From NCBI GenBank assembly GCA_964370315.1, contig CAYJIS010000002.1:35753-99752 (forward strand): a stretch of 64,000 nt of DNA, in the 5' to 3' direction. This DNA comes from an uncultured Treponemataceae bacterium (GTDB taxonomy: Bacteria > Spirochaetota > Spirochaetia > Treponematales > Treponemataceae). The position numbers and the translations under genes are program-made. This document shows, in pieces, positions 3,777 through 44,792 of this stretch (positions within the stretch are counted from its first letter, which is position 1; each line of letters opens with the position of its first letter). The notes below the pieces were generated by a model. That model made no database searches, was not told the origin of the DNA, and saw only the letters and a program-made list of their open reading frames with translations.

Positions 3777-5186
3777 ATGAAAAAAATACTTATTTTTATT
3801 ACTTTACTTTACCTAACGAACACCTTAATAGCTCAAGAAAAAGAAAGAACCTTTCAGTTTAGCTTAGTGACCCCCTTAGGAACAAACTGGACAGATTCAC
3901 ACCTATACACTAACATATGGTCTCTTAATTTAATTGGTGGCTATAGTTATGCAAACACACTTTTTGAACTAGGTGGTATTTATAATATTAATACAGGTTA
4001 TACAAAAGGAACTCAAATTGCAGGTGTTTTCAATTACACCTCACACGCGGAAAACTTATTGCAATTTGCGGGAGGGGCAAATCTCGCCTTTGGGGGAAAC
4101 AATATTTTTCAATCAGCTCTAGGAGGAAATATTGCAAACAAAATTACTGGTGGTCAAATATCTGGCCTTGCGAATCTTTCAGGGGTGACACAAGGTTTTC
4201 AAATTTCGCAGTTTGGAAACCTCTCTCAATCCCTATATGGATTTCAGTTATCGGCCGTAAATTTATCAAACAATGCCATGGGACTACAAACAGCATGGAT
4301 AATGAATGCCGTAGCAGAAACTTTTCTAGGAGCCCAAATTGGTGTTGGTGCAAATGTACTTGGGGAAGGGGCAGGCGTTCAAATTGCAGGCGCAAAAAAC
4401 TATGCTGGTCAATTTTCAGGACTTCAAGTATCTGGATTTACAAATATTACAGGTAGTTTTACAGGATTGCAAATTGCTGGACTAGGAAACCTTACCTATT
4501 CTGTTGAAGGAGTACAGATAGCCGCATTGGCAAATCTGGGTGAAGCAGCAAAAGGATTACAACTAGCGGCCATTGTCAACACTTCAGTAGATATGCAAGG
4601 TAGTCAAATCGCTGGTATTTTTAATTTTGCAAAATCAATGCATGGTTTACAATTAGGCTTGATAAACTATGCAGAAACGACAAACGGTCTACAGATAGGC
4701 TTAGTTAACATTGTAAGATATGAAGGCAAAAAAGACCTAGAATTTTCTTATTCAGAGGCATTAGATACTACAGTTAGCTTCAAACTTGGCAGTAATCCTT
4801 TTTATACCATTTTTTCAGCAGGGATAAATTATATTAGTGAACCTCTTGAGTATGCTTGTGGTATAGGATTTGGAACTCAATTAAATTGGAACTATGGCTT
4901 TAGCAATCAAATTGAAGCAATTGCATACCAATTAACAGAAGATGGCCAATTTTCAAATGCACTCAACATGCTTACACAAGTGAAACTTTTAACTTCAAAG
5001 CAACTTGTTGGCGGATTAAATGCATTTGTTGGCCCTACATGGAATATGACAATTTCTCAGCACAAAGATGAAAATGGAAATATTGGTGCATCATTAAAAC
5101 CTTGGTCTTTATGGCAAAAAAACACCACTAATACCCACTTAAATATGTGGATTGGCTTTAGCGCAGGACTTTTCTATAGATTTTAA
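3777..5186 (+). CDS. LA_2272-like surface repeat protein (signal peptide, about 15-aa G-x-Q-[IL]-[AS]-G-x-x-N repeats, C-terminal barrel-like domain)
   Basis: 469 aa. N-terminal signal peptide MKKILIFITLLYLTNTLIAQ. Many tandem units such as GLQVSGFTNITGSFT, GLQIAGLGNLTYSVE, GVQIAALANLGEAAK, GLQLAAIVNTSVDMQ and GSQIAGIFNFAKSMH. Ends in the aromatic residues ...GLFYRF. Confidence 0.75.
   Translation: MKKILIFITLLYLTNTLIAQEKERTFQFSLVTPLGTNWTDSHLYTNIWSLNLIGGYSYANTLFELGGIYNINTGYTKGTQIAGVFNYTSHAENLLQFAGGANLAFGGNNIFQSALGGNIANKITGGQISGLANLSGVTQGFQISQFGNLSQSLYGFQLSAVNLSNNAMGLQTAWIMNAVAETFLGAQIGVGANVLGEGAGVQIAGAKNYAGQFSGLQVSGFTNITGSFTGLQIAGLGNLTYSVEGVQIAALANLGEAAKGLQLAAIVNTSVDMQGSQIAGIFNFAKSMHGLQLGLINYAETTNGLQIGLVNIVRYEGKKDLEFSYSEALDTTVSFKLGSNPFYTIFSAGINYISEPLEYACGIGFGTQLNWNYGFSNQIEAIAYQLTEDGQFSNALNMLTQVKLLTSKQLVGGLNAFVGPTWNMTISQHKDENGNIGASLKPWSLWQKNTTNTHLNMWIGFSAGLFYRF
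3858..3957 (+). repeat. 100-nt block perfectly identical to 5368-5467 (5' coding module shared by the tandem paralogs)
   Basis: Direct comparison of the two gene starts. I counted about 7 mismatches in the first roughly 186 nt, and 100 consecutive identical nt. Identity drops sharply after codon 61. Confidence 0.9.
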
Positions 5187-5286: not shown

Positions 5287-6336
5287 ATGAAAAAAGTACT
5301 TATTTTTATTGCCTTACTTTACCTAACGAGCACCTTAGTAGCTCAAGAAAAAGAGAGAACCTTTCAATTTAGCTTAGTGACCCCCTTAGGAACAAACTGG
5401 ACAGATTCACACCTATACACTAACATATGGTCTCTTAATTTAATTGGTGGCTATAGTTATGCAAACAAAGCCGTTGAACTGGGAGGGTTATACAACTTCA
5501 ACTCGGGATTTACACAAGGTTTTCAAGCAGCAGGATTATTAAATTATACCGGAAATAGTGTAAACGCATTTCAGCTTGCAGGATTTGCAAACCTTTCCTT
5601 ATCTGGTAATTCAAGTCTTCAACTTGCAGGAATTGGAAACTTGGGCGAAAACACAACAGGCCTGCAGGGTGCAGGAATCATCAATATAGGAGCAAATATT
5701 ACAGGCGTACAAGTGGCAGGTGTAATGAACTTTGCAGATTATGTTACCGGAATACAGATAGCTCCAACTTTTAATATTGCAAAGTCTGTAAAAGGTGTTC
5801 AAGTTGGTCTTGTAAATTATGCCGAAGACATTGATGGGGTCCAAATTGGACTTATAAATGTTGTTGAAAACGGAGGAAAACAAGAAATAGAGATTTCTTC
5901 TTCTGAAGTCTTACACGGTGTTATTTCCTTTAAACTTGGAACAGATACCTTATATACTATTTTTTCCAGTGGTACTTACTTCTTGAATTATGATTTTGAA
6001 TACGGAGCAGGTATTGGCTTTGGCACACAATTAAACTGGAACAATGGGTGGAATAACCAAATCGAAGCAATTCATTATGCTATTTCGAGGGATGCAAGTT
6101 TTGAAACAATTCCCAATTCGCTTAATCAGGTAAAACTGTTAACAAGCAAAAACCTTATTGGTGGATTAAATATTTTTGCGGGCCCTGTTTTCAATTTAGA
6201 AATTCTTTATAAGTACAAAGTGGATGGAAGCTTCGGTGAATCGATTGCCCCTTGGGTTTTCTGGAACGTAAAAAATGAGCAAAACCACTTTAATATGTGG
6301 GTTGGATTTAACGTAGGCTTATCATATAGACTATAA
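5287..6336 (+). CDS. LA_2272-like surface repeat protein, shorter paralog
   Basis: 349 aa. The first 61 residues are nearly identical to the 3777 gene. It has the same GxQxAGxxN repeat type but fewer units. The C-terminal domain is homologous (GFGTQLNWN..NQIEAI...VKLLTSK) and ends ...GLSYRL. Confidence 0.75.
   Translation: MKKVLIFIALLYLTSTLVAQEKERTFQFSLVTPLGTNWTDSHLYTNIWSLNLIGGYSYANKAVELGGLYNFNSGFTQGFQAAGLLNYTGNSVNAFQLAGFANLSLSGNSSLQLAGIGNLGENTTGLQGAGIINIGANITGVQVAGVMNFADYVTGIQIAPTFNIAKSVKGVQVGLVNYAEDIDGVQIGLINVVENGGKQEIEISSSEVLHGVISFKLGTDTLYTIFSSGTYFLNYDFEYGAGIGFGTQLNWNNGWNNQIEAIHYAISRDASFETIPNSLNQVKLLTSKNLIGGLNIFAGPVFNLEILYKYKVDGSFGESIAPWVFWNVKNEQNHFNMWVGFNVGLSYRL
5368..5467 (+). repeat. 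Second copy of the 100-nt identical block (see 3858-3957)
   Basis: Same as 3858-3957. Confidence 0.9.
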
Positions 6337-6339
6337 AAC

Positions 6340-6642
6340 ATGAAAGAAGACTTTGATTCTCTTGCCCTTGCCATTGTAGAAGAGATTCCACTTGGCAAGG
6401 TTTCAACCTACGGCTATATTGCAAGCCTTATGGGCTACCCCAAAAATTCCCGACATGTCGGTAAGGCATGCTCAAATGCATCCTATTATGGAGAGTTTCC
6501 GTGTCACAGGGTAGTAAACTCACAAGGAAGATGCGCCCCTAGTTGGGATGAGCAACGTTTTTTATTAGAAGATGAAGGCGTGCGATTTAAAGAAAACGGT
6601 TGTGTAGATTTGAAAGAGCACTTATGGACAGGAGAGCAATGA
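6340..6642 (+). CDS. MGMT-family protein (methylated-DNA-[protein]-cysteine methyltransferase DNA-binding domain only)
   Basis: 100 aa. VSTYGYIA...PCHRVVNSQG contains the PCHRV active-site motif with the Cys retained. There is no N-terminal Ada/Ogt domain. Confidence 0.8.
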   Translation: MKEDFDSLALAIVEEIPLGKVSTYGYIASLMGYPKNSRHVGKACSNASYYGEFPCHRVVNSQGRCAPSWDEQRFLLEDEGVRFKENGCVDLKEHLWTGEQ

Positions 6643-6650
6643 TATAAAAC

Positions 6651-7859
6651 CTATCCTTTCCTCTCCTTATTTCTACCCTTTTTAAACTCATACATCCTGC
6701 TGTCTGCCAAATCAATTAATGAATCAATTGAAAGCTTATTCGTTTTATCTATCACAACAACACCATAACTAATTGAAGTGTCATATTCTTTTTTGTGTTT
6801 TTCTTTAAGTCTTACAACAGCCTCATGGCAATCTTGGGCGCTCTGCATCACATCAAGCTGCCTTATTTTGTTGCCTATAACGAGAAATTCATCTCCTCCA
6901 ATTCGAGCAATAATATCATAAGAAAAGCTTTCTTTTATACACTTTGTAGCATTTTTAATATACCAATCACCCTCTTCATGGCCATACGTATCATTAACTA
7001 TTTTTAATCCATCTAAATCGAGATACACCACATAGCAGTACTCTTTTTTTCCTATACTTTTTTGCAAAACATCCATTGCTATTTTTTTAACATAAAATCC
7101 CGTACAAAAATCTGTCTTCGCTTCTTCATTTAGTCTTTTTATCGTAACATTTTCAGACTCAATTTCAGCAGACGTGTCTTCGTACGTTTTAGATGCTTTT
7201 TTTAAGTTCGAATAAATAAAAACAATAAGCATAACAATTACAAAACTAATTAATGCTAAAAGCCCCGTTCTTATTTGATATATTGCATTAAAATGCCAAT
7301 CTCCTGTACCTATGTATAATGTTGGAATTGTTAATAGCTGCGTTATAGCTATAGCGCTTAATAATACACATGCTAATGTTAAGGTTGTTTTATCTTTAAA
7401 AATATAGATAACTGTATTTGAAATTAGTATTTTACTACTTATTAATATATAAGGGGTAACAATGATAAAAACAATAGCTGTTATCAAAATCTTATTATCT
7501 ATTACAGATAATATATCAATAATATCTTGCTGCCTATAAAGAGAAAAAATACCAATTACTAAAACCTTTAGACCAAAAAAGTTTATGATAAAGCACAGAA
7601 TAGAAGAAAGCGTAGTCATAAAGGGTTGTTTATATATTAGTTGCACTTCTACACCTAACACTAGAAAAAAAACTATCATAAACAATTCTTCGTGAATAAA
7701 GTTAAAACTAAAAAAAGGCGTATAAATCAAAAAACTATTCAAAATAATAACTAATATCACATTTTGAATTTTTGCCATTGCAATACCATAAATTCGAGAA
7801 AGCCAAAACATAACACACAACATATACATTACATATGCAACACAAGTAAAAATAAACAT
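6651..7859 (-). CDS. Polytopic membrane GGDEF-domain diguanylate cyclase, type A (no I-site)
   Basis: 402 aa. The N-terminal half of about 220 aa is multi-TM, followed by a coiled linker. GGDEF domain: LDLDGLKIVNDTYGHEEGDWY...ARIGGDEFLV. The residues 5 positions upstream of GGDEF read FSYD, not RxxD. The start lies 1 nt after the stop of the upstream gene. Confidence 0.88.
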   Translation of the reverse strand: MFIFTCVAYVMYMLCVMFWLSRIYGIAMAKIQNVILVIILNSFLIYTPFFSFNFIHEELFMIVFFLVLGVEVQLIYKQPFMTTLSSILCFIINFFGLKVLVIGIFSLYRQQDIIDILSVIDNKILITAIVFIIVTPYILISSKILISNTVIYIFKDKTTLTLACVLLSAIAITQLLTIPTLYIGTGDWHFNAIYQIRTGLLALISFVIVMLIVFIYSNLKKASKTYEDTSAEIESENVTIKRLNEEAKTDFCTGFYVKKIAMDVLQKSIGKKEYCYVVYLDLDGLKIVNDTYGHEEGDWYIKNATKCIKESFSYDIIARIGGDEFLVIGNKIRQLDVMQSAQDCHEAVVRLKEKHKKEYDTSISYGVVVIDKTNKLSIDSLIDLADSRMYEFKKGRNKERKG

Positions 7860-7860
7860 G

Positions 7861-9078
7861 CTATGTTCTCCTTTTCCTATAATAAAACTCTTTATCTTTT
7901 TTCATAAGATTATCAACTATATCTAAAACCTCTGTCCTTGTTTTTTTCTTCTCTCCCATCGCAAAGTACTTGTATCCTAAATTTGCATGCACAGTAAATA
8001 TTTCTTTTTCATCATGTTCTTTAATTAAATGTTGCATGCGATTAATGATAGATTGCAATATTTCATCCGTAACATCTGTTAAAATTACCACAAACTCATC
8101 TCCTCCTACCCGAGCCGAAAAATCGTCTTCTCGTATAGTCGCTCTCACAATGTTTGCAATGTCTATTAGGTACCGGTCACCTACTTTATGCCCAAAGGTA
8201 TCATTCACTGATTTTAAACCTGCCAAATCTGCATAAATTAGCCCAAAGTTATTATCTGAACTTTCACAAAGCTCATCAATTTTTCTATATATAAAACGCC
8301 TATTATAAAGCTTTGTTAAGTCATCGGTATATAGCTTATATTCTGTAGCAAGTTTCTTTTTTATTACTTGTCCATGTAAGGTAACTGCTTCATCGGCTTT
8401 TCGTTTGTAAGGATGTAAAACCATTATAAATGTATTAAAAAAGAACAGACTATAATACATAAGCAAAACAAAAAGAATTGTAATTACTGATGATAGGAAA
8501 AATTCTACAGTGTGAGGATTATTTGCTAGCACCCATGAATCTAACAAAACCACAAAAAATAAAAAACTTGATGTTCCGCCCATAATCTCTGAGTAAATCT
8601 TTGCAGTAGAAACCTCAAGTAACTTTGCAGCCGAAAGATATTTCTTTGCTAGTTCTAGAACTCCTATAAGAATTAAATACGTGATTGATAATGTTTGAAA
8701 AAATAATGAATGGTTATCATACATTTCTACCAATGTCATATTCAAAACTGCCCCAGTTATAATTAGAACAAGAAGATGTATAGAGGCTAGATTTATTAGA
8801 TAACTCGATGTTCCAAACAGAATTTGTCTAAAAGGAGCCTTTGAAACAAGTTTAAAAGTCACAAAATAAACCACATACGAAGCAATATACAAAGCAAAAA
8901 AAGGTAGGCCAAGATAGTACACAAAAGCGAAAACAAAAGTATTTATTACTGGAACAATAAAAAAAATTATTTTTCTTTTCGTCGGATATTTTAAAAGCGG
9001 TATAGCGAAGTGAAAAATAAAAAAACTATGGAGTATATAGATTGAAAAACCTATAAATTCAAAAACACGCACATTCAA
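7861..9078 (-). CDS. Polytopic membrane GGDEF-domain diguanylate cyclase, type B (RxxD I-site present)
   Basis: 405 aa. Multi-TM N-terminal half. DDLTKLYNRR...ADLAGLKSVNDTFGHKVGDRY...REDDFSARVGGDEFVV. TTG start preceded by AAGGA. Confidence 0.88.
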   Translation of the reverse strand: MNVRVFEFIGFSIYILHSFFIFHFAIPLLKYPTKRKIIFFIVPVINTFVFAFVYYLGLPFFALYIASYVVYFVTFKLVSKAPFRQILFGTSSYLINLASIHLLVLIITGAVLNMTLVEMYDNHSLFFQTLSITYLILIGVLELAKKYLSAAKLLEVSTAKIYSEIMGGTSSFLFFVVLLDSWVLANNPHTVEFFLSSVITILFVLLMYYSLFFFNTFIMVLHPYKRKADEAVTLHGQVIKKKLATEYKLYTDDLTKLYNRRFIYRKIDELCESSDNNFGLIYADLAGLKSVNDTFGHKVGDRYLIDIANIVRATIREDDFSARVGGDEFVVILTDVTDEILQSIINRMQHLIKEHDEKEIFTVHANLGYKYFAMGEKKKTRTEVLDIVDNLMKKDKEFYYRKRRT

Positions 9079-9340
9079 AATAAAATCCTTTAAATTGCCA
9101 GCAATTTAAAAAGTCAAAGCTTTTACGAATAATAGTCACAAATAACTTTTGTGATCTCAAGTGATAATCAAAGGTAAAAAATAATACCTTTTACCTATTT
9201 TCATCTTAAGAATACCGTTATTGTAAAAATTTGAGGATACTCATTATTTAAGTACAGTAATACCTCTGTGCGTGTTTTTCGATATTTGTTATATTATATA
9301 TCAATTATGTTTAAAAGTAAACCTACTAATTTTTAATGAA

Positions 9341-9967
9341 TTATATATCTTTTAACCCTGTAATAAGATTTTTCGCATATGGCAAACCTTCAATCCATTC
9401 ACAAAAAGTATGCCATTCGTTTAGCTTATGATTTTTTCTTGAATAATAAATATTTATAAGCGTTTCATAATTCATTGTGCAGGTGCGAAGCTGATTATAG
9501 CTTGACGGTAAAAGCTGAATCATATCGTGCCAGTATGACTTATCTTTGGTTTCTACAAAAGAAAGGCGTGCTTTTTCTAAAAAGTCGATAAGGATTTGCA
9601 TTTGCTCCTTTGCTGCTTCACTCATTTTATCCGTACTAAAATCGTCCATGCTAAAAGGCTTTGAGTGTATTTTATGCATCGTGCTTGTGGAATTTGCAAC
9701 GGTCGAAACTTTATAAGTATCGTATTCTTTCCACCAATACATAGGAGCTGTTACATCAACAGAAACAAAAATCTGCCGTATAAATTTGCGATGATCGCTT
9801 CCTGATTTACAAAGGCGCCCTGCAAGATCTAAGTCTTTTTCTCCAAGAACATAGTTTCCCTTGTCATCATAGTAACTATCAGATCTCTCCCAACTATTCA
9901 TTGGATTTCTTGCACCCCTAATAGCATTTTCTATATTCATAACTGAATCGTTTGAAATTGTTAACAT
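9341..9967 (-). CDS. ThyX-fold (Thy1-like) protein lacking the canonical RHRxxSxxxxSxR signature; function unknown
   Basis: 208 aa. By eye it is collinear with ThyX as I remember it: AIRGARNP.. matches [37 protein letters not shown] matches [60 protein letters not shown] matches [33 protein letters not shown]. All signature Arg and His residues are replaced. Confidence 0.55.
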   Translation of the reverse strand: [208 protein letters not shown]

Positions 9968-10032
9968 TCTTTTTCTCCCACTTCGTTTGCTTTTATTAGT
10001 ATATCAAAAAGGGGGTGGCTCGACAATAGATT

Positions 10033-11286
10033 TTACTGAGAATATTTTTGTTTACGCTCTTTATTTCTCATCTTTTTAAAGGTATACATTTTATCATCAG
10101 TTAGTTCAATTAACTCCTCTGCTGTAAAAATGTTTGAACTATCAACTTCTGTTACTCCATAACTAATAGATGTTTCATACTCTTTCTTATTTTTCTCTTT
10201 GAGTTTTAATACAGATGCATAACAACGCTGAACCTTATCGTTTATTGAAGACGAATCATTTCCTACTAGCAAGAATTCGTCCCCTCCAATACGGGCAACA
10301 GTATCTGCAGAAAACACACTTTGTATTTCTTTTGATACTTCTTGAATATACCAATCACCCTCTTCATGGCCATAGGTATCATTTACTATTTTCAATCCGT
10401 CTAAATCAAGATAAACAATGTAGCATTTTTCACGCTCAGATAAAAACTTTTGCAACTTTTTCACCGCAACACTTCTAACATAAAATCCAGTAAAAAAATC
10501 AGTTTTTACCTCTGCTTCTAAACGTGCTACGGTTGAGTTTTCCATTTTTATTTTTTCAGAAGTAACTTCATACGTAACAGAAGCTTGTTTTAGTTTTGAA
10601 TAAATAAATACAATCACCATAATAAGAATAAAACTTATAAGGGCTAGTAAGCTTATCATTATTTGAAAACTGCTATTTAAAAGAGGATCCTCTGTTTCAA
10701 TATAAAGTGTTGGTAAAGCAAGTATTTGACTTATACAGGATATTCCTAATAATACCGCTGCTAATTTTAAGCTTGGAATATCACTAAATAAAAATTTAAT
10801 TACCTTTGAAATAAGTATCCTACTGCTAACAAGTATGTAAGGCGCTAAAATAAGAAATGTAATTGCTGTTATCTTAATTCTGTTATCAATATCACCAATC
10901 ATTTCAACGATTTGTTGACCCGAATTATAAGCAAAGATTCCTATTAGTAAAACTCTAATACCAAAATAATTTATGGTAAAACATAATACTGCAGATACTG
11001 TTTGTACCAGTGACTGTTTATACGTTAACGCAATCTGCATTCCAATAACAATAAAATATATAAACATCATTAGCCATTCTAACTTAAAGTCAGTTATATA
11101 AATCGGCACATAAACCAAAAAAGAGTTAATTATAATAAGGAAAAGCAACCTTGTTACGCTTACCATAGGAACACCAAAAATGCAAGCAAAATAATAGAAT
11201 ACAAAAATAATATAAGTGATATAAAATAAGTATGTAGCTATCAACACTCTAAAAACCCCCTTTTTTATAAAAGATTTTTTTATCAT
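10033..11286 (-). CDS. Polytopic membrane GGDEF-domain diguanylate cyclase, type A paralog (no I-site)
   Basis: 417 aa, collinear with 6651-7859. LDLDGLKIVNDTYGHEEGDWY...ARIGGDEFLL. FSAD occupies the I-site position. Its 5' end overlaps the upstream gene by 38 nt. Confidence 0.88.
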   Translation of the reverse strand: MIKKSFIKKGVFRVLIATYLFYITYIIFVFYYFACIFGVPMVSVTRLLFLIIINSFLVYVPIYITDFKLEWLMMFIYFIVIGMQIALTYKQSLVQTVSAVLCFTINYFGIRVLLIGIFAYNSGQQIVEMIGDIDNRIKITAITFLILAPYILVSSRILISKVIKFLFSDIPSLKLAAVLLGISCISQILALPTLYIETEDPLLNSSFQIMISLLALISFILIMVIVFIYSKLKQASVTYEVTSEKIKMENSTVARLEAEVKTDFFTGFYVRSVAVKKLQKFLSEREKCYIVYLDLDGLKIVNDTYGHEEGDWYIQEVSKEIQSVFSADTVARIGGDEFLLVGNDSSSINDKVQRCYASVLKLKEKNKKEYETSISYGVTEVDSSNIFTAEELIELTDDKMYTFKKMRNKERKQKYSQ

Positions 11287-12460
11287 GTTTCATGAGTTCA
11301 TCAACTTTTTCTAAAACATCCGTCCTTGAAAGACCATCTATTGTTTCAAAGCACTTGTATCCCAAATTTGCATGCACCGTAAACTCTTCTTTTTCATCAA
11401 TCTTGCGAATTGAGTTTTTTATTCTTCTAATTATTTCTTCCATCTCATTGTGTGTAACAGAAGTTAATATTATAACAAACTCATCTCCTCCGATTCGAGC
11501 AGGAAAATCCTCATCACGTATTGATTTTTGCAAAACTCTTGCTACATCCAATATATAGCGATCTCCAACCTTATGCCCATACGTATCATTAACATACTTT
11601 AGTGCAACGAGATCTGCATATACTACAGCAAAGCTACAATTCTTAGCCTCACACAATTCATCTATTTTTTGATGCACAAAGCGTTTGTTATAAAGATTTG
11701 TTAGATCGTCGCTATAAAGCTTGTACTCAGTAGCAATTTTCTTTTTAATGATTTTACCATGCAATGTTTTTGCTTCATCTGCTTTTCGTTTATAAGGATG
11801 AAGAACCGTTATATTTGCATTAAAATAAAACAGTACATAAAACATTGCCATTACAAAAAAGATTGTTGCAAGAGCCGAAATTGGAAAAAGAGGTTGATAA
11901 TGAGCTTTCATAAGAAACCATGACTCTGCACAAAGGGCTGCAAATAAAAAGGTTGATTGTGAAGACATTATCTCAGAGTATACTTTTGCAGTTGATATTT
12001 CTACAAATTTTGAAATAGGAATATATTTTTCATAAACTTTTATTAAGACAATAAGAATTGTACAACTCACCACTACGGTTTGAAAAAGTAATGGGACATT
12101 TACATAGATGTCACCTAAGGATTCGCGCAAGATCAAGCTATACAAAAGCAAAACGGTAAGATGAACCGCAACCATACTTAATAGATATGAAGTAATAAAA
12201 AACCAAACTTGTCTGAAGGTTGTTTTAGTGCAAAGGCGAAGTTCAACAAAATAGCCGAAATACCCAATAACGTATAGCACAGCCCAAGGAACCCCGCAAA
12301 AATATAACACAATAAAAGTACACGTGTTAAAGAGCGTAAAAAAAATCAGTAAAAGGGTATTCTTTTTAGAGTATTTGAGAATTTTTAAAGCAAACTGCAA
12401 AATAGAAAAGCAATATGTGGCATAAGATAAAAAGCCTAATGCAATCCAAAAATTCGTCAA
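11249..12460 (-). CDS. Polytopic membrane GGDEF-domain diguanylate cyclase, type B paralog (RxxD I-site present)
   Basis: 403 aa, collinear with 7861-9078. DDLTNLYNKR...ADLVALKYVNDTYGHKVGDRY...RDEDFPARIGGDEFVI. TTG start 6 nt after AAGGAG. Confidence 0.88.
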   Translation of the reverse strand: MTNFWIALGFLSYATYCFSILQFALKILKYSKKNTLLLIFFTLFNTCTFIVLYFCGVPWAVLYVIGYFGYFVELRLCTKTTFRQVWFFITSYLLSMVAVHLTVLLLYSLILRESLGDIYVNVPLLFQTVVVSCTILIVLIKVYEKYIPISKFVEISTAKVYSEIMSSQSTFLFAALCAESWFLMKAHYQPLFPISALATIFFVMAMFYVLFYFNANITVLHPYKRKADEAKTLHGKIIKKKIATEYKLYSDDLTNLYNKRFVHQKIDELCEAKNCSFAVVYADLVALKYVNDTYGHKVGDRYILDVARVLQKSIRDEDFPARIGGDEFVIILTSVTHNEMEEIIRRIKNSIRKIDEKEEFTVHANLGYKCFETIDGLSRTDVLEKVDELMKHDKKIFYKKGGF

Positions 12461-12608
12461 GCAATACTCCTTTCAATAATCTTACCCTAAATTATATAAG
12501 AAAACCGTATTTATGTAAATAATGCTAGCTTTGCAAAATGAATATTCTTCTATAAAATAATTATTAAATGTATCCCACATAATTCATATAAATATCTTAA
12601 GTTTGCAC

Positions 12609-31921: not shown

Positions 31922-33268
31922 TTAACTCGCTGCAACCTTATTGAACAACTTTAACAAAGCCTCTTTGTCAATCAAGTCAATAGGGCGCCCCTCCACAAAT
32001 TTTTTGGTATCACTTGTAAAGCTTCCTGCAGTAAAACAAATACCCCTTCCAGCTTTTAAATCCCGAATTCTCCCATGAAAATCACGAATAACAAATTCCC
32101 CAGTAACACCTGTATTTCTGTAGAACCTAAAAACCACATAATCTTCCCACTTTGCGGTTTCAATTTCGGCTTGTATTTCAACTACATCGGGCTTTGCATC
32201 CATACCAATAATTTTAACTTGAGAATTAGCATAAAAAGATGAAACAATTTTTCTACACATCGCTAAAAATTCACTACTCCCTGAAACCAAGTATGTTTTT
32301 AGGCTTGCATTTTGATTCATTTCTTGGTAGCGCGAAATAAGTGCGTTTGTATCTTTGTATCCAGGGCTTGATGCATTTACTATTTGTAATAAACTTAAGG
32401 CCTCAGAGATATTATTTGTTTGTAAATAGGTTTGCGCTAAATTATATCTAATCGAAGTAAGTATATCTAAAGGAACATCCGTATGTTTTAATCCAATTTC
32501 ATAATCTTTTACCGCTTTTTCATACTGCTTTTGCTTTTCATGAGCAGCACCTGCGTATAAACAGGCCTTCGCCCCAAATTCTGGATCAGCACGCAAATGT
32601 GAAAAAACAGGTAAAGATTTATCGATTCTGCCACAATGATATAAAGATTCTGCCATGGAAAATAAAACTTTTTTGTTCTCTGGATTAGTTTCAAAAGCAA
32701 CTTTTAAATGAGGAAAAGCTTGTTTGTAAGCTTGCTGTTGATGAAGAGCAAGTCCTAAATACTCATGAACAAGAGCATTTTCTCTGTTAAGGGCGAGGGC
32801 TTTATTAAAAAACGGAATCGCTTTTTCTGCCTGGTTATCGCTCAGGTATACCTGACCTAAATAAAAATTTATTTCAAAGTTATCAGGCATCTTGCTTCGC
32901 GCTATTAGTAAGTTTTTAAAAGCTGCTTCGACTCTTTTTGTTTTTAAGGCACATACACCAGCTTTATATGAAGCATTTGTAATATCAACCTCTGGATTCA
33001 GAGGAGCAACTTCAATAAGAGTATTAAATAAGTCTAAAGCTTTTTCCCATTCATTTTCTTCAAAATATAATTCTGCAAGAGGCAATAACCCACGGGGATT
33101 ACGTTGATCTTGTTTTAATTTTTTTTGTGCCTCTTTAATAAGAGCTTGCCTGGATTTTCTATTCTTAGCACCCTGTGTCTTGGGGTTTTTTGAGGCTGTC
33201 GTAAAAAAAACTATAAAAGCCGCTATTACAACCGCAGCAGCAATTATTATTGGAACAATAAAATTCAT
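31922..33268 (-). CDS. Membrane-anchored TPR-repeat protein with a C-terminal Mrr_cat-like (restriction-endonuclease-fold) domain
   Basis: 448 aa. One N-terminal TM helix and about 6 TPR-like units. The C-terminus FLAMCRKIV...DVVEIQAE...YVVFRFYR...GICFTAGSFTSDTKKFVEGRPIDLIDKEALLKLF resembles the Mrr catalytic-domain layout. Confidence 0.65.
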   Translation of the reverse strand: MNFIVPIIIAAAVVIAAFIVFFTTASKNPKTQGAKNRKSRQALIKEAQKKLKQDQRNPRGLLPLAELYFEENEWEKALDLFNTLIEVAPLNPEVDITNASYKAGVCALKTKRVEAAFKNLLIARSKMPDNFEINFYLGQVYLSDNQAEKAIPFFNKALALNRENALVHEYLGLALHQQQAYKQAFPHLKVAFETNPENKKVLFSMAESLYHCGRIDKSLPVFSHLRADPEFGAKACLYAGAAHEKQKQYEKAVKDYEIGLKHTDVPLDILTSIRYNLAQTYLQTNNISEALSLLQIVNASSPGYKDTNALISRYQEMNQNASLKTYLVSGSSEFLAMCRKIVSSFYANSQVKIIGMDAKPDVVEIQAEIETAKWEDYVVFRFYRNTGVTGEFVIRDFHGRIRDLKAGRGICFTAGSFTSDTKKFVEGRPIDLIDKEALLKLFNKVAAS

Positions 33269-43805: not shown

Positions 43806-44681
43806 TTAATTACCTTCAGAACTTTCCGCAATAAGAAACGCTTCATCTGAGTCGCCCGCTATTGCGGACTTTTGTCTTTTAGAATAATTTTCACTATCAA
43901 GTGGCATATTTTTTATGCGAGCATCTATTCTGCTTTGAAGTAGGTTACGTACATATATGTCAATTGCAGATTTTGCTGAAAATGAAAGATCCTCAGTAAA
44001 TAATAACACCAAAAATAATTTTTCATTTTCAATATATGTTCTGTAAATAGTAACGTTTGCTTTTGTTTTTTGTCCTTTTATATTAATTATAAAATTATTT
44101 AAAAGTTTTTTATTTGTAAACAAGGCTTGAGCAACAGGAAAGGTCTCGCAAAGAATTCCGGCTGAACTAATATTGCTTATTTTCAATGAATGATGAAAAC
44201 CTTTTACTTCATACTCACCAGCAAGGTCTTTTTCTTCTTCGCAGTTTGCTCGTACAAAGTTCCTTCTTCCTTTTGCTTCATTGATATTAAGAATGCTATG
44301 AATATAATCATGAATTATTTCATCACTTTGTGAGAGAGAAACGAAACCGCCTGGTATTGAAGCATTAAGTAAAAAGTGATCCTTTTCTTTTTGCCCTGCG
44401 TAAGTCGACATAATACCAAGGATAACATTTTGAAAATTCTTATCATTAGAAATAGAGGATACAAAATTATACCATTCATCTATTAATAGCTCTGAATCGA
44501 TACAAATAAAAAAAACTGCACTTGGGTATTCGCGTAAAATCGATTTTGCATATTTATAACTAGACAAAACATATAACTCATACCCCGATGTCGCTAACAT
44601 TGGAATTATTGTGTCTTGAAATTTTGTTGGTGCATTTAGGAAAAAAATTTTTCTTCCTAAATCCAAAGCTCCTGATTCCAT
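43806..44681 (-). CDS. PilZ-domain c-di-GMP receptor with an uncharacterised N-terminal domain
   Basis: The track ORF starts at a TTG at 44699. The ATG at 44681 follows GGAGGG. PilZ motifs RRNFVR and NISSAGI (RxxxR ... [D/N]xSxxG) lie in the C-terminal half. Confidence 0.78.
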   Translation of the reverse strand: MESGALDLGRKIFFLNAPTKFQDTIIPMLATSGYELYVLSSYKYAKSILREYPSAVFFICIDSELLIDEWYNFVSSISNDKNFQNVILGIMSTYAGQKEKDHFLLNASIPGGFVSLSQSDEIIHDYIHSILNINEAKGRRNFVRANCEEEKDLAGEYEVKGFHHSLKISNISSAGILCETFPVAQALFTNKKLLNNFIINIKGQKTKANVTIYRTYIENEKLFLVLLFTEDLSFSAKSAIDIYVRNLLQSRIDARIKNMPLDSENYSKRQKSAIAGDSDEAFLIAESSEGN

Positions 44682-44792
44682 ACATCCCTCCAGTCGCAAA
44701 AATCATTTAAAATAAACAATTATCATTACTACTTTTATGTTAACATGCATACCTAAAGATAACAAGAGGTTTTATATCAAAATTGCAAATGT

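Follow-up and report, generated by a model that had tools for sequence, protein, structure and literature searches.

Why would a bacterium keep the genes for two different membrane-bound GGDEF proteins directly side by side, and why would it do so twice within a few kilobases? The question is raised by a locus in a 64,000-nucleotide (nt) stretch of DNA from an uncultured Treponemataceae bacterium (GenBank assembly GCA_964370315.1, contig CAYJIS010000002.1, positions 35,753 to 99,752 of the forward strand), which we call the window and within which all positions are counted. The locus holds four genes for GGDEF proteins of two types, A and B, arranged as two B-A cassettes, and a fifth gene for a protein with the fold of the thymidylate synthase ThyX. 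Our work shows that B and A are ancient paralogs of identical architecture that occur as a strictly conserved two-gene module and that the RxxD motif of the I-site, through which product feedback would act, belongs to the B side of the pair. We propose that B and A may form a translationally coupled, heterodimeric diguanylate cyclase in the membrane. The five open reading frames (ORFs) are all on the minus strand and have the positions given for them in a first-pass annotation that was made without database searches:

6651-7859, minus strand: A1, 402 amino acids, ATG start; seven transmembrane (TM) helices and a GGDEF domain, I-site-minus (FSYD)
7861-9078, minus strand: B1, 405 amino acids, TTG start behind AAAGGA; seven TM helices and a GGDEF domain, I-site-plus (REDD)
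9341-9967, minus strand: ThyX-like gene, 208 amino acids, ATG start; ThyX fold, phrog_6721 family
10033-11286, minus strand: A2 as the longest ORF, 417 amino acids, ATG start; seven TM helices and a GGDEF domain, I-site-minus (FSAD)
10033-11247, minus strand: A2 from its probable GTG start, 404 amino acids
11249-12460, minus strand: B2, 403 amino acids, TTG start behind AAAGGAG; seven TM helices and a GGDEF domain, I-site-plus (RDED)

Pairing, I-site asymmetry and history of B and A

Each protein of one cassette has a full-length counterpart in the other. A1 and A2 are 51% identical over 401 alignment columns (E-value of 2e-143) and B1 and B2 are 49% identical over 394 (1e-141), in good agreement with the collinear paralogs at roughly half identity that had been estimated by eye. 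Between A and B, BLASTP finds a match confined to the GGDEF domain, with 31% identity. Pfam places one GGDEF domain (PF00990) in each of the four proteins, at approximately residues 247 to 400, above the gathering score and with E-values from 2e-24 to 5e-32; the NCBIfam model TIGR00254 is also matched. All four retain the GGDEF signature and the guanine-contact residues (LK.VNDT.GH..GD), as the first-pass annotation had read them, and little or no variation is seen across both families in the GG[DE]E-x motif, the metal-binding Asp and the guanine-contact N/D. In the PDB, B best matches the GGDEF domain of a Thermotoga maritima protein whose entry (4urs) names it a diguanylate cyclase (E-value of 3e-20). 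A and B are members of a known enzyme class, and from their intact catalytic motifs both would be expected to have cyclase activity.

The two types differ at the I-site. An RxxD motif stands exactly five residues before GGDEF in B1 (REDD-FSARV-GGDEF) and in B2 (RDED-FPARI-GGDEF); A1 and A2 have FSYD and FSAD at this position. The split into I-site-plus and I-site-minus partners, first noticed in these four proteins, turned out to be a property of the whole family. Among the 30 pairs described below, 29 B proteins have RxxD; no A protein does, the position of the Arg being taken by F, L or Y.

Relatives of the pair are few, and all come from metagenome-assembled genomes (MAGs). Among 5.8 billion proteins we found approximately 27 full-length relatives of B and 73 of A. 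A genome scan with a profile of A recovered 27 loci in which the match was full-length. Almost all belong to one MAG project (ERP123703), and the others are from two Epulopiscium MAGs and a Clostridia MAG; the titles of the relatives' records, which are unverified labels, name Treponemataceae, Oscillospiraceae, Bacteroides and others. Every ORF in these loci was searched with hidden Markov models (HMMs) of the membrane halves of A and B. Together with two further loci (L006 and L007) and the window, the 27 loci make up a set of 30 intact pairs on 29 contigs of gut-type MAGs.

In this set the gene for B lies immediately upstream of the gene for A, on the same strand, in 30 of 30 cases. The gene-neighborhood survey that the first-pass annotation had called for thus finds the B-A pair to be a tightly coupled, conserved two-gene module. 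The pairs diverge down to approximately 25% identity, and over this range neither the B-then-A order nor the I-site asymmetry ever flips. No third gene is conserved beside the pairs: their flanks vary, and the sole recurring neighbors are generic ABC ATPases and response regulators, whose positions differ from locus to locus. We therefore rejected the idea of a third conserved partner, be it a PilZ, EAL or HD-GYP protein, an exporter or a regulator, because none of these recurs at a fixed position near the pairs. One of the loci, L007 (2489-7845), has genes for two C39-peptidase ABC exporters and an Rce1/CPBP-like gene upstream of its B-A pair. These genes suggested peptide sensing, an idea that we abandoned because the arrangement was seen in L007 only.

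The junctions between the two genes are of the kind seen in translational coupling. In the window, the stop codon of B1 and the start codon of A1 are separated by 1 nt (TAG-c-ATG), with AAGGAG upstream of the A1 start. For the second cassette, the direct adjoining of B and A that had been described in the first-pass annotation is equally valid; the 38-nt overlap given there is probably an artifact of calling the longest ORF. A GTG at 11247 sits 1 nt past the B2 stop codon (TAG-a-GTG) with GGGGG 8 nt upstream, and translation from it yields an A2 protein of 404 amino acids whose N terminus matches the family. In the nearest relative, the A2 ortholog, 71% identical, is likewise called with a 1-nt gap. 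With the GTG start, both cassettes have the same 1-nt junction. Across the family, 25 of the 30 pairs have a possible A start between −4 and +2 nt from the B stop, most commonly as a 4-nt overlap of the ATGA type, and the A start chosen by our heuristic lies between −13 and +11 nt in all 30. Both B genes of the window do begin with TTG behind strong sites (AAAGGA and AAAGGAG, 6 to 7 nt away), as had been reported, but this start codon is not a family feature: the same heuristic gives ATG for 19 B genes, TTG for 6 and GTG for 5.

How old is the pair? A neighbor-joining tree of the 60 proteins of these pairs separates A and B into two monophyletic clades, and the matrices of A-A and B-B distances are correlated with an r of 0.95, a pattern that indicates a single ancient duplication after which the two genes were inherited together. 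The doubled cassette is found only in the window, in one relative (loci L001 and L008) and in L014. In L001 the order is an lpdA-like gene, B2, A2, B1, A1, an MGMT-like gene and the ThyX-like gene, with the four GGDEF genes contiguous. Because both cassettes are flanked by the lpdA-like and MGMT-like genes in this relative as in the window, the duplication of the cassette must be older than the split of the two genomes. The identities between the window and L001 are 73% for the lpdA-like and 79% for the MGMT-like protein, 71% for A2, 62 to 74% for B2, 59% for B1 and 50% for A1; by sequence comparison, cassette 1 is the faster diverging of the two. The B2 ortholog in the relative is split into ORFs of 130 and 270 amino acids (L001, 4618-5827, the same as L008, 6784-7993) and is either a pseudogene or the product of an assembly error.

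The seven-helix membrane module

The N-terminal halves of the four proteins share one architecture. An AlphaFold 2 model of A1, computed with 71 homologs, has a mean predicted local distance difference test score (pLDDT) of 90.7 and shows seven TM helices, at residues 2-24, 31-51, 57-76, 80-109, 120-145, 157-182 and from 188 onwards. The last of these continues unbroken to residue 248 (188-248) and is followed by the GGDEF fold. For B1, hydropathy and the positive-inside rule likewise predict seven TM segments, with the N terminus outside, the C terminus and GGDEF domain inside, and K/R-rich loops (KYPTKRK, SKAPFRQ and AKKYLSAAK) facing the cytoplasm. When the full A1 model was compared with the PDB, the best fold matches were GGDEF cyclases with a stalk or coiled coil, namely SiaD, the phytochrome-linked PadC, WspR and DgcB; this search returned matches to the GGDEF domain and the coiled coil only and none to the TM part. 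Aligned with hhalign, the A and B membrane halves match with a probability of 98.4% and an E-value of 8e-15 over 223 aligned columns, and their combined alignment is almost gapless, with an invariant Asn in TM2. Since the membrane halves are homologous, A and B are ancient paralogs of identical architecture.

To which sensor family does this half belong? The first-pass annotation could name none, and our searches agree. A Pfam and NCBIfam scan of the four proteins found no membrane-domain family, and Pfam found nothing in approximately the first 235 residues. The membrane halves, tested as residues 1-235, fit no Pfam sensor family, including 5TM-5TMR_LYT, MASE and 7TMR-DISM, and no Pfam membrane family recurs among 26 members of the B family and 71 of the A family even at an E-value of up to 10. 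Full-length B proteins have a weak match to the NCBIfam model GdpS (E-values of 5e-7 and 5e-6), which is far below the cutoff.

A much larger family emerged when 1.84 billion representative proteins were searched with a profile built jointly from both membrane halves. The profile matched 384 representative proteins at an E-value of at most 1e-3 and 243 at 1e-10 or below, all of them from metagenomes and without a name in any source searched. Most members are approximately 400 amino acids long and have the same architecture as the proteins in the window. Longer members combine the module with other outputs (7TM-PAS-GGDEF, 7TM-(PAS)-GGDEF-GAF, 7TM-GGDEF-GGDEF-EAL and, in one case, 7TM-HATPase_c_5); they are single or not tightly paired. 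The 7TM-HATPase_c_5 protein (P0487) is an HPK10 kinase of the AgrC type and is encoded beside a regulator with Response_reg and LytTR domains. Because the module precedes output domains of several kinds, we regard it as a signal-input module. These architectures suggest that the seven-helix half behaves as a modular sensor domain for which Pfam holds no model, and the description of the cyclases as sensor-less-looking in the first-pass annotation was misleading. The module is a candidate new sensor family that couples to GGDEF, PAS-GGDEF, GGDEF-EAL and HPK10 kinase outputs. A comparison of its profile with Staphylococcus aureus AgrC gave negative bits, and we make no claim from it.

Two loci of such relatives illustrate the range of settings. 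Locus L088 (3767-7377) is a two-component cluster that encodes a LytTR response regulator and two HPK10 kinases, one of them soluble with a PAS domain and the other bearing the same seven-helix module. Locus L091 (1876-7217) encodes GGDEF proteins of 728 and 738 amino acids with one CntK_N-like gene between them, a loose pair that is not translationally coupled; the 738-amino-acid protein has the seven-helix module, and the first protein also has a weak GAF match.

A proposed heterodimeric cyclase and its alternatives

The synthesis of cyclic di-GMP (c-di-GMP) requires two GGDEF domains, one GTP being supplied by each, and the enzyme must therefore be a dimer. Diguanylate cyclases are normally treated as homodimers with equivalent protomers. 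Why then does the cell keep B and A together? The pair is never separated or reordered, even at approximately 25% identity, and a B/A heterodimer is the simplest account of this; strict co-occurrence, a fixed gene order and coupling-type junctions are what an obligate heteromeric pair would display. On balance we therefore favor, with moderate confidence, the view that B and A constitute a translationally coupled heterodimeric membrane cyclase. The B stop and A start codons overlap or lie 1 nt apart, so that translation of A would be coupled to that of B and the two proteins would be made in equal amounts. They would then assemble as a heterodimer in the membrane, where the two nonidentical seven-helix halves would sense a signal in or at the membrane. 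This signal would be relayed through the paired stalk helices that extend from TM7, drawing the two GGDEF domains into contact. Feedback by the product would be exerted at the one RxxD I-site of the dimer, that of B. A more specific version, in which the heterodimer is obligate and either detects coincident signals or is under asymmetric feedback control, with exactly one I-site and possibly two different ligand-sensing halves, is one that we offer more tentatively and to which we give somewhat less than an even chance.

Several considerations weigh against a heterodimer. A physical complex of B and A is inferred from the gene data, and co-inheritance together with a high mirror-tree correlation is to be expected for any two adjacent genes. 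The start codons at the junctions come from an HMM-based heuristic rather than from experiment, and for the pair itself neither a ligand nor an effector nor a phosphodiesterase partner came to light. Moreover, the catalytic motifs are complete in both A and B, so that each could act as a homodimer. This leads to a different explanation, according to which A and B are independent homodimeric cyclases, each with its own signal, that are cotranscribed merely as a result of tandem duplication; the loss of the I-site would then have produced one feedback-limited and one unlimited enzyme, and the locus would be an ordinary tandem set of membrane diguanylate cyclases. The intact GGDEF, metal-binding and guanine-contact residues of both types are in line with this, as is the fact that the longer relatives of the seven-helix family are single or loosely paired. 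The closest described case also argues for independence: in Listeria monocytogenes, DgcA and DgcB are adjacent, polytopic and approximately 30% identical, and each of them showed cyclase activity (PMC4125290). Independent enzymes would, however, be expected to be lost or separated occasionally, yet all 30 A genes have a B gene directly upstream, in unrelated neighborhoods and at identities down to approximately 25%, and neither the order nor the side that bears the I-site has changed. For these reasons we consider independent homodimers less likely than the heterodimer, to which they are the chief alternative.

Alternatively, B could be mainly a regulatory or receptor subunit, a pseudoenzyme-like partner that binds c-di-GMP at its I-site and controls A as the real cyclase. 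The I-site is invariant in B, an invariant Tyr near the C terminus of B replaces the Arg of the 'GRN' found in canonical GGDEF domains, and GGDEF receptors that use the I-site are known, PssE being an example (PMC4125290). However, the corresponding C-terminal motif of A is also noncanonical, nearly all B proteins retain GGDEF, the Asp that binds metal and the residues that contact guanine, and the best PDB match of B was deposited as a cyclase; we judge a mainly receptor-like role for B improbable. Least probable of all, to a degree that makes us discount it almost entirely, is a functional role of the ThyX-like gene in the duplicated cyclase module. The gene shares the strand of the cassettes, lies between them and starts 65 nt downstream of A2, and the first-pass annotation had described it as embedded in the cyclase arrangement. 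That description did not survive the comparison with other genomes, because the gene is not co-conserved: it stands beyond the MGMT-like gene, outside the four contiguous GGDEF genes, in the nearest relative (L001) and is absent from the other 27 loci. Elsewhere it is a very widespread stand-alone gene of Clostridia beside unrelated genes, with homologs in phages. From its distribution we take it to be an unrelated neighbor, which a local rearrangement would have placed between the cassettes.

If the heterodimer is real, the B-A pair would be a natural heterodimeric diguanylate cyclase, in which one could test the effect of the number of I-sites per dimer and of combining two different sensor halves.

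Neighboring genes and comparison with known systems

The ThyX-like protein is of interest in its own right. It matches no Pfam family (including Thy1, PF02511) and no NCBIfam model, and neither the protein nor its profile has a sequence match in the PDB; it does match phrog_6721, a family of unknown function, with an E-value of 8e-70. More than 8,000 homologs are 72 to 91% identical to it (72 to 79% in Clostridia and Lachnospiraceae), and the gene is also found in phages of Clostridium, Enterocloster, Fusobacterium and Clostridioides difficile. An AlphaFold 2 model with a pLDDT of 78 gave, in a Foldseek search of the PDB, a list whose top 50 entries are all ThyX (probability of 1.0, E-values from 2e-5, TM-scores of 0.45 to 0.55 and 16 to 18% identity). 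In the viral fold library BFVD, phage ThyX comes next after uncharacterized homologs. The RHR...S.R motif of ThyX is replaced by an invariant DTYK...S.STMH, which in the protein of the window reads DTYK...STSTMH. The earlier term 'pseudo-ThyX' is fair for the fold, but a protein so strongly conserved is surely functional. It may be an enzyme of nucleotide or DNA metabolism. In phage phiCTP1 a homolog is encoded in the replication module, between the clamp-loader and UvsX genes, and a literature search for ThyX-like proteins found phage annotations only.

A phmmer screen of all ORFs of the window with seed domains, the sensitivity of which is limited, found no EAL or HD-GYP protein, in keeping with the first-pass annotation. 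The PilZ receptor reported there at 43806 was only partly confirmed. This ORF (43806-44699, minus strand, 297 amino acids) has both PilZ-like motifs in its C-terminal half, RRNFVR for RxxxR and NISSAG for (D/N)xSxxG, but matches no Pfam model, PilZ or other, at an E-value of up to 1e-3; if the protein is a c-di-GMP receptor, it would be a divergent one.

Two promoter-like sites precede the cassettes and are consensus matches only:

12491-12519, minus strand: promoter-like site 5' of B2, TTTACA-17-TATAAT, 11 of 12 positions
9293-9321, minus strand: promoter-like site within the 262 nt that separate B1 from the ThyX-like gene, TTTACT-17-TATAAT, 10 of 12 positions

In this AT-rich DNA, neither the promoter scan (40 matches against 32 expected) nor the terminator scan rose above background. 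The G+C content is 0.31 to 0.33 over the cyclase cassettes (6000-12000) versus approximately 0.35 to 0.38 in most of the window, and horizontal acquisition of the cassettes is possible. The A and B families are otherwise found mainly in Clostridia-type MAGs, and the record of the nearest relative is labeled Treponemataceae. The cassettes are surrounded by ordinary chromosomal genes (UvrB, HtrA-like, lpdA-like, RluA-like, MscS, MetK and an FeFe hydrogenase). The window contains one tRNA and otherwise no Rfam match, and a PADLOC scan found nothing relevant. The window also encodes two adjacent paralogs (3777-5186 and 5287-6336, both on the plus strand) with near-identical leader-like N termini (MKK[IV]LIFI[TA]LLYLT...) and long G/Q/A-rich repeats, neither of which has a Pfam match. 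A further ORF (31922-33268, minus strand) combines TPR repeats and a C-terminal Mrr_cat restriction-endonuclease domain in one protein.

How does the B-A pair compare with systems that have been described? Its neighbor, the 208-amino-acid protein, shares the fold of the flavin-dependent thymidylate synthase ThyX (PF02511) and differs from it in lacking the Thy1 match and the RHR...S.R motif. For the membrane half, the AgrC-type HPK10 kinases that work with LytTR regulators offer a parallel, as they too are polytopic with short loops, and P0487 has both the kinase core and the LytTR neighbor. In contrast to these kinases, the proteins of the window have GGDEF outputs, and no peptide gene or AgrB-like gene was found near the cyclase genes. 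A paired organization is known from RcbA and RcbB of Vibrio vulnificus, which, like B and A, are encoded in a conserved bicistronic operon and share an N-terminal domain. RcbA and RcbB interact and together set c-di-GMP levels; however, their shared domain is a soluble TPR domain, and only RcbB is described as a diguanylate cyclase (PMC12282931).

Closer still are DgcA (Lmo1911) and DgcB (Lmo1912) of Listeria monocytogenes, adjacent paralogous polytopic GGDEF proteins like B and A, there in a Firmicute. The two cyclases have consecutive locus tags (lmo1911 and lmo1912) and six or eight TM helices before the GGDEF domain, and the authors ascribe their similarity to an ancient duplication (PMC4125290). 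The excerpts of the paper report no heteromer, translational coupling or I-site asymmetry for them (PMC4125290).

Finally, the proteins of the window share the GGDEF fold and the catalytic residues with PleD, WspR, DgcZ and TM1788 of T. maritima. These enzymes dimerize via a helical stalk, and the spacing of their RxxD motif, five residues before GGDEF, is the same as in B. They are homodimers in which each protomer bears an I-site, and their sensors are soluble or of other kinds, whereas in the B-A pair one of the two paralogs is always I-site-minus.

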